Part shown: piece after piece, positions 59,707 to 61,855 of the stretch
How positions within the stretch are numbered: the first letter of the stretch is position 1
Layout: each line of letters starts with the position of its first letter
Source of the DNA: Escherichia phage EC.P1
Direction: 5' to 3' (one strand)
Sequence record: PQ657772.1
DNA length: 64,000 nucleotides
Position numbers and translations under genes: made by a program
The notes under the pieces: generated by a model
What the model was told of the DNA's origin: nothing
Database searches by the model: none
Seen by the model: the letters and a program-made list of their open reading frames with translations, nothing else

Positions 59707-60225
59707 TTAAACAGGTTTAACAGGGAACGAAAACTTCTTCTTACTAAATTCAGATGTTGTTAGAGATGATAGCTCAAGAACATATGCTTTCAACTTAGGA
59801 AACAGTTCTATTTCATAATCAGTTGCTACCTCAAGATCTATCGCCATCTTAATGTTATTCAACTCATTAATTGCTACGGTTCTTAATTCTTGGTGCTCAG
59901 ATGATAGACGTTTGATCTTTTCATCAGTAGATTCAACATAATCAGAAATTTTACTTCCATCATAGATTTTACCAACTACTTCATCTTCATCTCCATCATG
60001 CTCCAACTCAGAAACACTGTATCCATACGGTACTAACAATGTTACATCATATGATGCTTGTGCAATATATCCATCGTCAGAGTACTGAACTTTTAAAGTA
60101 TCTTGTCTGAATTCGTTTTGACAATCATACCAGTCAACACCCTCATCTGACAATAGATAAAGAACATTATCTCCATGTTTCTTTTCTACTGGGATATATT
60201 TTTTGAAATGTGTATATGTTTTCAT
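59707..60225 (-). CDS. tail fibre assembly chaperone (Tfa-like), tentative
   Basis: Directly downstream of tail fibre gene (2-nt gap); C-terminus ..ELRTVAINELNNIKMAIDLE..FPVKPV resembles the helical C-terminus of Caudo_TAP-type chaperones. Confidence 0.4.
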   Translation of the reverse strand: MKTYTHFKKYIPVEKKHGDNVLYLLSDEGVDWYDCQNEFRQDTLKVQYSDDGYIAQASYDVTLLVPYGYSVSELEHDGDEDEVVGKIYDGSKISDYVESTDEKIKRLSSEHQELRTVAINELNNIKMAIDLEVATDYEIELFPKLKAYVLELSSLTTSEFSKKKFSFPVKPV

Positions 60226-60226
60226 A

Positions 60227-61855
60227 TTAAGACTCCACTACTACGTTAGTCCATACACCATTGACTAATTTTTGTGTATATCTCCAACTATAACCTTCAA
60301 CGTGTGTACCAGAACTCCCATTTACGGAAATAAACAACCCATCAAGCGTAGCACCTTCTGGTGCATAGATCCAAGAAGAATCAGGAACACTTCGCGTAGA
60401 TGTTCTTTTACTTAAACGAACATCTTGTACAGCACCCAGTGTTAAAGTTACGTTGCCGCTTGCATCAGCGTTGTTACCGTTAATAGATCTGACGATGTTT
60501 TTACTAGCAACAGTTGCTGTGTTTCCAGAAATAGACAATGATGCACCAGTTACTGATGGAGCATAAAGTACACCAGAAGAGTTAATTGTAACTTCAGAAC
60601 CACCATTACTTCTCAAACGTAATGTATTTGTTGATGAACTGTGATAAATTGCTGCACGTTCAGTAGTTCCTGCCGCGTTACGGAAGTAAAGTACTAATGA
60701 AGTATCATTCGAACGAATTGTTGCACTGTTTGCGATACTCAATGAACCAGACATTGTATCACCAGTTTTAAGTACATAACGGGTGTTTGCAACTTTTTCA
60801 CTCAATGCAACGTTTGACTCTGCAATGTTATATAAGTATGCCACATTAAAGTGTGGTACGTCAATATTGCTAATTCCGTGGCTGTGTGCTTGACCACTAC
60901 CAACAGTATTCGTAGAACCACTGAAACTATGCACGTGATCAGGTGCTTCGTTAATGTTATTAATTACAGTTGGGATTCCGTTGTCGTTACTGGATGTTAA
61001 CGCATTAAGACCACTTCTGTCCATACCTTTTAGTGCTTGGCTATGACCATGACGACCAGCAGCACCAGTAGTTCCACTGAAACTAAATGAGTGCGGTGGA
61101 AGTTGAGCAATTGATATCGCAGTACCACTAATTGATGCACTACTTGCAATCACACTATCAGTTTTAGTTACGCCTGATGTGGTAATACCTTTCAAGTATG
61201 CTTCTTGGTTAAGATTTGGAACTTGTTTTGTGATTGTACCATTTTCACCATCCCATGTCCACCACATTCCATCAGCAAAACACCAACCGTCAGAAGTTTT
61301 CCACGGAGAACCTTGTGAACCATTACGACCACTTTGACCATTGGTCACACCAGACATCTGTTCACGAATACTAGCAACAGTTTGTCCAGAAGTCAATGAG
61401 TACTGGGTAATTGCACCAGGCTTCATTGAAGTATAAAGACCTGTTGGGCCAGTACCGCTACTTGATGGAATAGGGAATACGATATTTAAATTCGTACCAC
61501 TAATGCTCGCACTTGGAACAGCACTACTACTATATGTTACTGTTTCAACTTTTAAATTCAGTTTACGGTTCACTTCATCGAGTGAAATACGGATTGGTTC
61601 AAGAATTGTATCAGTATCGTATACTGCAATCCAACTTGTCCCGTTGTGGTATTTTAACACCAACTCATTTCTATCAAATACCATAGCACCTTGCTCACCT
61701 GCTGGCAATGCCTGTACTGGTAAAATGACAGAAGATGAATTAAAACGAATAGGTCTTGGATTAGTTGGTGTACCACCAAGCACTATTAGTTCTAAAGATC
61801 CATTAGCACCAGTACTAGTCATAGTATCCAGTGGGTTATTAAAACTTATGCTCAT
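60227..61855 (-). CDS. tail fibre protein (receptor-binding)
   Basis: KTGDTMSGSL fibre motif; HxH repeats (RHGHS, DHVHSF, AHSHG) as in T4 gp12/gp37 tips; Ser/Thr/Gly/Asn-rich. Confidence 0.6.
   Translation of the reverse strand: MSISFNNPLDTMTSTGANGSLELIVLGGTPTNPRPIRFNSSSVILPVQALPAGEQGAMVFDRNELVLKYHNGTSWIAVYDTDTILEPIRISLDEVNRKLNLKVETVTYSSSAVPSASISGTNLNIVFPIPSSSGTGPTGLYTSMKPGAITQYSLTSGQTVASIREQMSGVTNGQSGRNGSQGSPWKTSDGWCFADGMWWTWDGENGTITKQVPNLNQEAYLKGITTSGVTKTDSVIASSASISGTAISIAQLPPHSFSFSGTTGAAGRHGHSQALKGMDRSGLNALTSSNDNGIPTVINNINEAPDHVHSFSGSTNTVGSGQAHSHGISNIDVPHFNVAYLYNIAESNVALSEKVANTRYVLKTGDTMSGSLSIANSATIRSNDTSLVLYFRNAAGTTERAAIYHSSSTNTLRLRSNGGSEVTINSSGVLYAPSVTGASLSISGNTATVASKNIVRSINGNNADASGNVTLTLGAVQDVRLSKRTSTRSVPDSSWIYAPEGATLDGLFISVNGSSGTHVEGYSWRYTQKLVNGVWTNVVVES

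Follow-up and report, generated by a model that had tools for sequence, protein, structure and literature searches.

The C-termini of tail fibres and their Tfa chaperones are classically exchanged horizontally among the P2, Mu, P1, lambda and T-even phages. In the jumbo phage RaK2, gp098 is a virion component located at the baseplate and needed for infection; antiserum stops infection, and immunogold labelling is found mainly on contracted tails (PMC10253068). The protein CBB_260 of phage CBB was found by mass spectrometry with 11 peptides, and the CBB virion carries six short fibres of 28.6 nm (PMC5259590). For fENko-Kae01, the record annotation of the fibre carries an LC-MS/MS-identified flag, and the virion proteome of phAPEC6 includes no protein between gp215 and gp225, the expected place of the fibre orthologue (PMC7247149). 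Outside the jumbo phages, the short tail fibre and chaperone of rV5 are homologous to GpS and GpU of Mu, and an LPS outer-core receptor has been proposed for them (PMC8594841).

The stretch of DNA analysed here (hereafter the window, 64,000 nt of PQ657772.1) comes from a RaK2-like jumbo coliphage and is 99.7% identical to fEgEco12 across positions 53000-62595. All features described below from the DNA polymerase gene to the major capsid gene lie on the minus strand. Among them is a fibre gene of 542 codons (60227..61855), the orthologue of RaK2 gp098, 121Q gp607 and CBB_260, and directly behind it the gene for a 172-aa tail-fibre assembly chaperone (Tfa) of the Mu gpU type (59707..60225). We consider it probable, at roughly 80%, that the 542-aa protein is a conserved RaK2-like baseplate fibre that occupies an ancestral locus and whose tip and folding aid are swapped by recombination.

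The assignment as a fibre rests on a near full-length match to phrog_13229, “tail fiber protein” (E = 3.6e-247, aa 1-538 of 542), and orthologues were detected by tblastn in 121 phage records. Pfam and NCBIfam searches with the fibre gave no match, and PDB sequence searches with the protein or with a 76-sequence profile returned nothing meaningful. The AF2 model of the monomer has a mean pLDDT of 74.7, with values below 50 for aa 272-304 in the region of the HxH motifs, and among PDB entries Foldseek ranks the Mu tail fibre highest (5yvq_A, E = 2e-5).

The protein falls into a conserved and a variable part. Codons 1-362 (60770..61855), identified by identity to relatives, form the conserved proximal two-thirds, presumably the baseplate-attachment end and shaft. 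Over aa 1-250 the identity is 86-90% in 121Q and JNE01 and 57-66% in EJP2, a divergent Asteriusvirus, as well as in other genera. A segment with three HxH motifs (aa 269-271, 307-309 and 324-326; 60878..61051) lies within this part, and H324 and H326 are its only HxH residues invariant in 76 homologues. T4 gp12 and gp37 are precedents for metal binding by HxH motifs, and by analogy the motifs here may coordinate metal within a trimer. The KTGDTMSG motif (aa 363-370; 60746..60769), in which K363, G365, D366, M368 and G370 are invariant among the 76 sequences, marks the 5' edge of the variable block, as placed by this conservation and by a drop in identity. Further on, a second motif, SKNIVRSINGNNADASGNV (aa 451-469; 60449..60505), is invariant at N453, V455, R456, N459, G460, A463, D464, G467 and N468 in our alignment A1, and it is just past this motif that tips from different families are attached. 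The preliminary description of this DNA had recognised a fibre with a KTGDTMSG motif and HxH repeats and a Tfa-like gene immediately downstream, and it was right on both counts.

The distal tip (aa 476-540; 60236..60430), presumably the receptor-binding end, is of the Mu gpS type. The profile of its family aligns with aa 441-503 of Mu gpS in hhalign (probability 95.9%, E = 5.5e-9, 62 columns, 31% identity), and rV5-like “short tail fiber” proteins have a C-terminus that is 35% identical to the tip. With this tip, the distal third (aa ~363-542) would bind the receptor, probably through an LPS-core sugar, judging from the homologues in Mu and rV5-like phages (PMC8594841); that comparison spans 31-35% identity, and the specificity of such a domain is known to change easily. 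Three sources consulted for receptor or host-range data on Asteriusviruses, namely the fEgEco12 paper, the paper on the extended BASEL collection and a 2026 preprint on a receptor screen, do not cover this gene.

The Tfa reading frame begins after a 1-nt gap behind the fibre stop codon. Its product matches Pfam Caudo_TAP (PF02413) over aa 35-169 (36.6 bits against a cut-off of 22.1, E = 5.8e-9), phrog_136 (4.7e-34) and Mu gpU itself, both by phmmer to PDB 5yvq_B (7.1e-11, aa 20-157) and by blastp to Mu U (4e-15). As in the Tfa family, the gene stands directly 3' of its cognate fibre and co-varies with the tip, being lost in one and replaced in the other of two close relatives discussed below, L014 and L015. 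The faster divergence of the N-terminal than of the C-terminal half that has been published for Mu-type Tfa did not appear as a consistent pattern. On the strength of the family matches, the homology to Mu gpS/gpU and the published work on orthologues, the 542-aa and 172-aa proteins are a genuine pair of tail fibre and chaperone. Tfa, translated directly downstream, is predicted to bind the tip and to nucleate folding of the trimer from its C-terminus.

The role of the fibre on the virion allows for two readings. Most likely it forms six short receptor-binding fibres under the baseplate, a location that we infer from the orthologues. It is unlikely, by our estimate, that it is instead the primary (long or lateral) host-recognition fibre rather than a gp12-like secondary fibre of the baseplate. 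Asteriusviruses lack the nine-protein branched fibres of RaK2, the only fibres visible in micrographs of phAPEC6, fEgEco12 and CBB are six short ones at the baseplate, plus “hairs” (PMC7247149, PMC13070987, PMC5259590), and Mu gpS, the tip homologue, is the main receptor-binding fibre of Mu, all of which would suit a primary fibre. However, antibody reaches RaK2 gp098 mainly once the tail has contracted, and in its soluble form gp098C failed to compete for adsorption (PMC10253068). Other large fibre proteins are also encoded, such as the 180-kDa Gp256 of phAPEC6 (PMC7247149), and the nearest coliphage tips are annotated as short tail fibres.

We then compared the locus with L014 and L015, in which the polymerase gene is 99.6% and 99.8% identical to that of the window, respectively, the block of the two small genes upstream of the fibre together with the polymerase is 99.6-99.8% identical, and the 3' end of the major capsid gene is 100% identical in L014. 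Up to about codon 360 the nucleotide identity of the fibre gene to both is mostly 96-100%, with one 30-codon bin at 92%; over codons 361-390 it falls from ~99% to ~85%. Between 59684 and 60442, blastn finds zero homology between the window and either relative, with flanks that are 97-99.6% identical over long alignments. The breaks are sharp: homology ends at 60443 (L014) and 60474 (L015) and resumes at 59683 and 59625, respectively. These breaks delimit a strictly exchanged cassette of 759 bp (59684..60442) that comprises fibre codons ~472-542 and the entire Tfa gene, within a wider variable block of ~1.05 kb that begins at the KTGDTMSG codons and has its 3' edge at a terminator-like hairpin with a T-run just past Tfa (59639..59665). 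In L014 the cassette slot measures 337 bp and holds a Gp53-like_C tip (PF21882, 1.7e-14) without a chaperone gene. In L015 the tip is again a different one, and the accompanying chaperone of 180 aa is 39% identical to the type found in 7t3 and only weakly similar to the Tfa of the window.

This pattern supports, at the level of sequence comparison, a swap of the distal part of the fibre and the chaperone as one unit, even where flanking genes are 99.6-100% identical. Fast divergence in place under diversifying selection, with no recombination involved, appears quite improbable as the source of the distal variability. It could accommodate the comparisons with 121Q, JNE01 and EJP2, in which the distal parts are still alignable and of the same family (54-61% aa identity in the tip, 40-47% in Tfa). 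The identity gradient against 121Q speaks for exchange of the distal part: amino acid identity to the 121Q fibre declines from 90% (aa 1-340) through 78% (aa 341-445) to 61% (aa 446-542) and is 47% in Tfa, against 86% for the T5orf172 gene and 92% for the 101-aa gene on the two flanks; at the DNA level there is a valley of 49-69% over about 59650-60700, compared with mostly 80-90% in the polymerase and 101-aa genes. Against divergence in place, L014 and L015 combine flanks that are 99.6-100% identical with other tip families or alleles and sharp breaks in homology, and the loss or replacement of a chaperone is beyond the reach of point substitution.

A wider sample agrees with recombination at the locus. 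A homologue search with the fibre gave 142 homologues; the best 120 of these, all at E = 1.4e-122 or better, were taken together with the fibre of the window. The 121 fibres carry Mu-S-like tips (87), Gp53-like_C tips (21), Peptidase_S74 tips (12) and one other, and tip family does not track N-terminal identity. That one orthologous fibre takes tips with three folding strategies (Tfa in trans, an S74 intramolecular chaperone, or none) at one junction motif is already well supported.

To place these genes in context, we examined gene order in fEgEco12, 121Q, EJP2, JNE01, RaK2, GAP32, CBB, XbC2, BF, fHe-Yen9-04, 7t3 and fENko-Kae01, which represent Asteriusvirus, Alcyoneusvirus, Mimasvirus and Eneladusvirus as well as 7t3 and fENko-Kae01. 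The order major capsid protein (MCP), small genes, T5orf172, fibre, chaperone, 100-aa gene and family-B DNA polymerase (PolB) is collinear in the relatives examined, and the position of the fibre between the MCP and PolB genes is conserved in the RaK2-like phages examined, L014 and L015 included. On the downstream side, a conserved 101-aa gene (59301..59606; phrog_12534, 1.6e-45; 54-92% aa identity in all compared relatives), flanked on both sides by terminator-like hairpins, separates Tfa from PolB (56213..59218; PF03104, PF00136). Immediately upstream of the fibre lies a 107-aa T5orf172 mini-gene of the GIY-YIG clan (61897..62220; PF10544, E = 3e-13), which is annotated as 102 aa in relatives, implying a start at 62205, and is found at the same position with 64-87% aa identity in the compared relatives except RaK2. 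Next come a conserved 119-aa gene (62245..62604; phrog_15724), whose slot holds a gene of similar size in relatives, with homology established for fEgEco12, 121Q, L014 and L015 only, and a polymorphic 309-aa nuclease-like gene outside the fibre cassette (62619..63548; phrog_681 “endonuclease”, 1e-69). The latter has zinc-finger repeats and a weakly T5orf172-like C-terminus (Pfam matches sub-threshold only, T5orf172 E = 0.039), is present in L014 and absent from fEgEco12, and shows a co-conversion-like footprint. The 3' end of a T4 gp23-like MCP gene, assigned from its translation and from the MCPs of fEgEco12, 121Q and L014 (PF07068, Gp23), runs off the window (63630..64000), 1.8 kb upstream of the fibre gene; relatives have their portal, protease, scaffold and MCP genes directly upstream.

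This setting changes the picture given in the preliminary description, which placed the pair in a replication module, far from the packaging genes, between the polymerase gene and two GIY-YIG/T5orf172-like genes. The order holds, but the 101-aa gene prevents direct contact with PolB. One of the two nuclease-like genes is confirmed at 61897-62220; the other, set apart from it by the 119-aa gene, is supported by its phrog_681 match and reaches T5orf172 only below threshold. The distance from packaging genes does not hold up, with the MCP end at 63630-64000 and a Terminase_6N gene ~10 kb from the fibre pair (48246..49583), nor does the notion of a replication module, as structural and replication genes are interleaved throughout in the RaK2-like group. 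Because the layout is ancestral and the capsid genes lie just past the window end, the seemingly odd placement beside the polymerase is an artefact of the window boundary. Judged by gene order, the locus is an old, fixed, ancestral position common to the RaK2-like phages examined.

The preliminary description had also proposed a horizontally acquired module, and the arrangement proved collinear in all RaK2-like phages examined, the very observation that it had named as speaking against its proposal; horizontal exchange survives for the distal part of the fibre and the chaperone and falls for the whole 2.15-kb pair. Because the same gene order recurs in these relatives, we reject a recent horizontal insertion of the entire pair into the replication module, possibly mobilised by GIY-YIG/T5orf172 genes: the mosaicism of tip and chaperone with unrelated phages (Mu, rV5-like, phi92-like) and the presence/absence polymorphism of the nearby nuclease-like gene, with its footprint, lend it something, but it is scarcely credible when the pair sits in the same slot in four or more named genera, the first 250 aa of the fibre show about the same divergence as the T5orf172 and 101-aa neighbours, the adjoining T5orf172 is fixed and the polymorphic gene is two genes off beside the MCP gene, and the GC content of the region (0.34-0.40) is like that of the remaining window. 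Homing-type insertion of the cassette was likewise considered and rejected: every relative has the fibre gene at this site, and the varying part is the distal ~0.76-1.05 kb only.

Upstream of the fibre, the box AATAAATA (61888..61895), with an ATAAATA late-promoter-like core (61888..61894), lies 32 nt from the ATG. Its presence had been noted correctly; as an 8-mer it shows no enrichment (3 copies, 9.7 expected), and neither does the 8-mer TATAAATA. The positional signal resides in the 7-mer ATAAATA, which has been predicted to serve CBB and GAP32 as late promoter (PMC5259590). ATAAATA is depleted overall (13 copies against 29 ± 5.8 expected), yet 10 of the 13 copies are intergenic, and these sit 11-109 nt upstream of a start on the same strand. 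Several of the genes so preceded are annotated as structural where checked against the fEgEco12 annotation. In the manner of T4-type late promoters (TATAAATA-like), the predicted motif is thus found upstream of late or structural genes and avoided elsewhere. The copy upstream of the fibre is kept in 14 of 15 genomes and degenerate in EJP2, and in each of seven relatives checked a further copy precedes the MCP gene; T5orf172 is likewise preceded by one in relatives checked. A scan for sigma-70 promoters gave 39 sites, a number at background level (31.7 ± 5.7 expected). From its sequence and position, we take the box to be one occurrence of the ATAAATA late-promoter motif published for the family. 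The fibre and Tfa genes would probably be transcribed late from it, ending at the hairpin past Tfa.

Overall, the proximal two-thirds of the baseplate fibre (aa 1-362) would be inherited vertically and provide the presumed docking to the baseplate and a shaft, with trimer and bound metal both predicted. Host range may change through homologous recombination at the junction motifs KTGDTMSG and NIVRSINGxxADxxGNV, with each swap carrying a tip together with its folding aid, which would be Tfa in trans or a Peptidase_S74 intramolecular chaperone; Gp53-like_C tips would need none. A conjecture that we hold very improbable is that the T5orf172 gene, fixed upstream of the fibre in most genera, is a domesticated nuclease that nicks or cuts near the locus during co-infection and creates a recombination hotspot; if true, the fibre-plus-chaperone cassette would be a targeted hotspot of host-range exchange. 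The practical value of the locus is limited and lies in exact recombination junctions (KTGDTMSG at 60746-60769, the end of the GNV motif at 60449 and the terminator at 59639-59665). Together with the natural alternative tips, they could help to engineer the host range of Asteriusvirus-type jumbo coliphages, a group being explored for therapy, and a single junction that accepts three folding strategies may serve as a natural template for such engineering in jumbo phages.

Among the known systems close to the fibre is the baseplate secondary receptor-binding protein RaK2 gp098 (= phiK64-1 S2-8), with 50.6% identity over aa 1-472 and the same slot between MCP and PolB. Both have a KTGDTMSG-type motif, the HxH at aa 324-326 and the junction motif, which reads NVVRAINGxxADxxGN in RaK2. 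RaK2 differs in its Gp53-like_C tip (PF21882), a Gly/Ser-rich repeat insertion, a middle segment of different form (28% identical) and the lack of both a downstream Tfa and an upstream T5orf172. T4 gp12 is close to the fibre in length (527 vs 542 aa), also has an HxH motif, and resembles it in the role proposed for a baseplate fibre, irreversible binding. T4 gp12 needs gp57A and not a Tfa-family chaperone. The functional analogy with gp12 has been drawn for RaK2 gp098 (PMC10253068); membership in the gp12 family was rejected, as the searches gave neither a sequence nor a fold match.

The likeness to Mu gpS/gpU (PDB 5YVQ, 8JU3) extends to Tfa, to the last ~65 aa of the fibre and to a chaperone gene directly downstream of the fibre, whereas the remaining fibre has no detectable similarity to gpS and the window has no invertible G segment. 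The Mu chaperone is reported to remain on the virion (PMC9608196), unlike the chaperone orthologues of jumbo phages, which are undetected in phAPEC6 virions (predicted Tfa Gp220; virion proteome of 62 proteins) and unlisted in the CBB proteome (PMC7247149, PMC5259590). The short tail fibre and chaperone of Vequintavirinae (rV5-like) and phi92-like phages are 35-45% (tip) and ~31% (Tfa) identical to those of the window and differ in proximal parts and genomic context. These homologues of Mu GpS/GpU probably target LPS outer-core glucose and show little allelic variation at the locus (PMC8594841), whereas three or more tip families are found at the jumbo-phage locus. Phages of the P2-like, P1/P7, Mu and lambda-like groups also have Tfa homologues. 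The mosaic fibres of P2, Mu, P1, lambda and T-even phages, in which the distal part and cognate chaperone are swapped at conserved linkers, represent the same phenomenon with no essential difference: the mobile unit here is the last third of the fibre plus its chaperone, which is ordinary tail-fibre biology of an already known kind.

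The preliminary description read a fibre gene and an adjacent Tfa-like gene as a horizontally acquired host-range module within the replication module. Both open reading frames are present as described, on the minus strand: a 542-aa fibre protein (60227-61855), with KTGDTMSG at aa 363-370 and HxH at aa 269, 307, and 324, and a 172-aa protein (59707-60225) whose ATG lies 1 nt past the fibre stop. The Tfa-like identity also holds, as the 172-aa protein scores 36.6 bits against Pfam Caudo_TAP, above the cut-off of 22.1, and matches phrog_136. The fibre matches phrog_13229 (“tail fiber protein”) over its whole length (E 3.6e-247), with no match in Pfam or NCBIfam. 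Using tblastn, we found fibre orthologues in 121 phage records, including WPEC3 (99.4% identical) and RaK2 (gp098; 50.6% identity over aa 1-472). Ecwhy_1 has a Tfa 100% identical to that of the window, and there the two genes are annotated as “tail fiber” and “tail fiber assembly protein”; the pair was thus already known from annotations of near-identical GenBank genomes.

Megablast with 59000-63600 identified RaK2-like jumbo coliphages, the nearest being fEgEco12 (99.3%) and Ecwhy_1, WPEC3, BF17, and CMSTMSU (about 97-98%), with the 121Q/PBECO4 group (genus Asteriusvirus) at ~82%. The pair was said to lie between the polymerase gene and two T5orf172-like genes. PolB (56213-59218, minus strand) and a T5orf172 gene (61897-62220, minus strand; a 107-aa ORF, ~102 aa in relatives; Pfam E 3e-13) do flank it, but a 101-aa gene (59301-59606, minus strand) separates Tfa from PolB, and the second gene (62619-63548, minus strand; 309 aa) lies beyond an intervening 119-aa gene and is below threshold for the T5orf172 domain (E 0.039). 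Nor is the pair far from packaging genes: translation of 63630-63998 (minus strand) yields the C-terminal end of a major capsid protein (MCP) resembling T4 gp23, whose gene runs past the window end, and a Terminase_6N gene lies at 48246-49583 (minus strand). The impression of distance arose because the window ends 1.8 kb upstream of the fibre. The large terminase is apparently split into three overlapping minus-strand ORFs (49862-50548, 49546-49890, and 48246-49583), with the Terminase_6N match limited to the last; the same split appears in the fEgEco12 annotation (g367-g369), and could be explained by frameshifting, by an element lying within the gene, or by a gene that is truly split (48246-50548).

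In fEgEco12 and 121Q the gene order is portal, protease, scaffold, MCP, (nuclease), ~116-aa gene, T5orf172, fibre, Tfa, ~100-aa gene, PolB, clamp, GroES, and virion proteins. The same order is found in EJP2 and JNE01 (Asteriusvirus), RaK2 (Alcyoneusvirus), GAP32, CBB, and XbC2 (Mimasvirus), BF and fHe-Yen9-04 (Eneladusvirus), 7t3, and fENko-Kae01. The arrangement is therefore universal and collinear among all relatives compared, which refutes the reading of the pair as an acquired module in an odd place. Its placement is not unusual for this phage group; in the fEgEco12 annotation, replication and structural genes are interleaved along the whole stretch. The GC content of the fibre region shows nothing unusual.

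Comparison of fibre C-termini instead supports well a smaller, classical mosaic unit with exact breakpoints: the distal third of the fibre plus the chaperone is exchanged, not the whole pair. In an alignment of 13 fibre orthologues, the N-terminal ~250 aa are conserved and the middle segment occurs in two forms; the KTGDTMSG region and a junction motif, (G/S)KN(I/V)VRS(I/V)NGxxADxxGNV (aa 451-469), are conserved, and the C-termini diverge after it. Relative to 121Q, amino acid identity is 90% for aa 1-340, 78% for aa 341-445, 61% for aa 446-542, and 47% for Tfa, compared with 86% for the T5orf172 gene and 92% for the 101-aa gene. At the DNA level, identity drops to 49-69% across 59650-60700, versus mostly 80-90% over PolB and the 101-aa gene. 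As to the middle segment (aa 251-340; 60836-61105), the coliphage, 7t3, and Kae01 lineages have the HxH-rich form, and RaK2, GAP32, CBB, BF, Yen9-04, and XbC2 have the other (HYH...DDG...NDG...), which is 21-28% identical to that of the window. H324 and H326 are the only invariant histidines of the HxH motifs across 76 sequences, and aa 255-329 are 44-47% identical to Felixounavirus tail fibres.

A large protein database also contains close fibre relatives bearing other tips. Across the N-terminal 250 aa, the metagenomic homologue P0013 is 98% identical and ends in a Gp53-like_C domain (PF21882, 1.7e-14), the kind of tip that RaK2 has, and P0014 is 99.6% identical and has a tip like that of 7t3. 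On L014, the contig encoding P0013, there is no chaperone gene between the fibre and 101-aa genes, and that of P0014 (L015) encodes a 180-aa chaperone 39% identical to the 7t3 Caudo_TAP chaperone and barely similar to Tfa of the window. By blastn, the window is homologous to L014 over 64000-60443 and 59683-55000, with none in between, and homology to L015 breaks at 60474 and 59625; the flanking segments are 99.6-100% identical in both. Within the fibre gene, identity to the two contigs is about 98-100% up to codon 360, ~85% over codons 361-390, and ~61% by codons 421-450. The exchanged unit therefore starts at the KTGDTMSG codons, loses homology past the GNV motif, and extends to the terminator downstream of Tfa. 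Clustering of the last 72 aa of 121 fibres (that of the window and the best 120 of 142 database homologues) gave 87 Mu-S-like, 21 Gp53-like_C, and 12 Peptidase_S74 tips and one other, and these groups do not follow N-terminal identity. The fibres of BF and fHe-Yen9-04 carry the Peptidase_S74 tip, an intramolecular chaperone, recognised in Eneladusvirus by an SDxRLKEN motif and a precomputed PF13884 match. Despite this tip, both have a 188-aa gene in the chaperone slot (L011 6177-6743 in BF; L012 6135-6701 in fHe-Yen9-04), unrelated to Tfa (9-13% identity) and, in BF, without a Pfam match. Exchange of fibre tips together with their Tfa is textbook phage biology.

The flanking nuclease-like genes had been taken as signs of horizontal acquisition. 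A stand-alone T5orf172/GIY-YIG-clan gene precedes the fibre in Asteriusvirus, Mimasvirus, Eneladusvirus, 7t3, and fENko-Kae01; this ~102-aa gene, directly upstream of the fibre, is fixed in all relatives except RaK2 (64-87% amino acid identity), and is therefore no marker of recent insertion. That it is so conserved speaks against its being a selfish homing element, and it has its own ATAAATA motif. Compared with fEgEco12, the 309-aa gene is a clean insertion of 984 bp (62596-63579). The MCP 3' end next to it (63580-64000) is only 88.5% identical to fEgEco12, compared with 99.66% over the other 9.6 kb (53000-62595), and matches L014, where this 309-aa gene is also present, at 100% identity. 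This looks like homing-endonuclease spread with co-conversion of flanking sequence. The insertion concerns the MCP-proximal slot, two genes from the fibre, which in other relatives holds different nuclease-like genes or none.

The AATAAATA box noted upstream of the fibre is present (61888-61895), but the 8-mer is not enriched in the window (3 copies vs. 9.7 expected). The positional signal lies in its core, ATAAATA, which is strongly depleted in the window (13 copies, e.g., at 9730, 16237, 18235, 33319, 48243, 52161, 52224, 54914, 61888, and 62235, vs. 29 +/- 5.8 expected): 10 of the 13 copies fall in intergenic sequence (~6% of the window), 11-109 nt upstream of a same-strand start. The extended consensus is roughly GATAAATA(A/T)(T/C), and several downstream genes are structural where checked in the fEgEco12 annotation. 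The motif upstream of the fibre is kept in 14 of 15 genomes compared (degenerate in EJP2), and in the relatives checked it also precedes the T5orf172 and MCP genes. The element is the one previously described for CBB and GAP32 as their predicted late promoter; it is similar to the T4 late promoter TATAAATA, and a gp55-like factor is encoded by CBB (PMC5259590). A terminator-like hairpin is found after each of the MCP gene (63607-63588), Tfa (59665-59639), and the 101-aa gene (59276-59256). With ATAAATA upstream and a hairpin after Tfa, the two genes may thus constitute a separate late transcription unit. The conserved 101-aa gene stands alone between two terminator-like hairpins, with a TG-extended -10-like site (TTGGAA-18-TACAAT, 59698-59669) upstream of the first; its match to phrog_639 “transcriptional regulator” (E 1.6e-7) is much weaker than that to phrog_12534, the family to which it belongs, and its fENko-Kae01 orthologue is flagged as LC-MS/MS-identified.

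The RaK2 orthologue has already been studied experimentally. RaK2 virions contain gp098, antiserum to its C-terminus strongly reduced plating, and immunogold labelled mainly particles with contracted tails; the authors concluded that gp098 is a baseplate protein and, by analogy with T4 gp12, a secondary receptor binder (PMC10253068). The CBB orthologue, CBB_260, was detected by mass spectrometry (11 peptides), and CBB has six short fibres of 28.6 nm beneath the baseplate (PMC5259590). The fENko-Kae01 fibre orthologue is flagged as LC-MS/MS-identified. In the phAPEC6 proteome, the predicted Tfa (Gp220) was undetected and no protein is listed between gp215 and gp225, the expected place of the fibre orthologue (PMC7247149).

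The AF2 model of the fibre, built from a 76-sequence alignment, has a mean pLDDT of 74.7, with the HxH-rich segment unconfident (aa 272-304, pLDDT <50). Its sole significant Foldseek match in the PDB is the Mu tail fibre bound to its chaperone (5yvq_A, E 2e-5); 8ju3, another entry for the Mu fibre, ranks next, and TM-scores are low. Searches of PDB chains with the fibre sequence and profile gave no match. We also considered T4 gp12 as a homologue of the fibre and detected no homology. In a profile-sequence comparison, fibre aa 476-540 align with aa 441-503 of Mu gpS, at its very C-terminal end (probability 95.9%, E 5.5e-9, 31% identity), and Tfa matches Mu gpU (phmmer 7.1e-11 to 5yvq_B; blastp 4e-15). 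The tip shares 35-45% identity with the C-terminal ends of “short tail fiber” proteins from rV5-like phages, and Tfa ~31% with phi92-like chaperones; in the BASEL study these proteins were described as Mu GpS/GpU homologues, with an LPS outer-core glucose as the proposed target (PMC8594841). The N-domain of Mu-type Tfa binds the distal fibre and promotes correct trimerisation (summarised in PMC9608196). The pair therefore consists of a tip and chaperone of the Mu S/U type, grafted onto a fibre body that is specific to jumbo phages.
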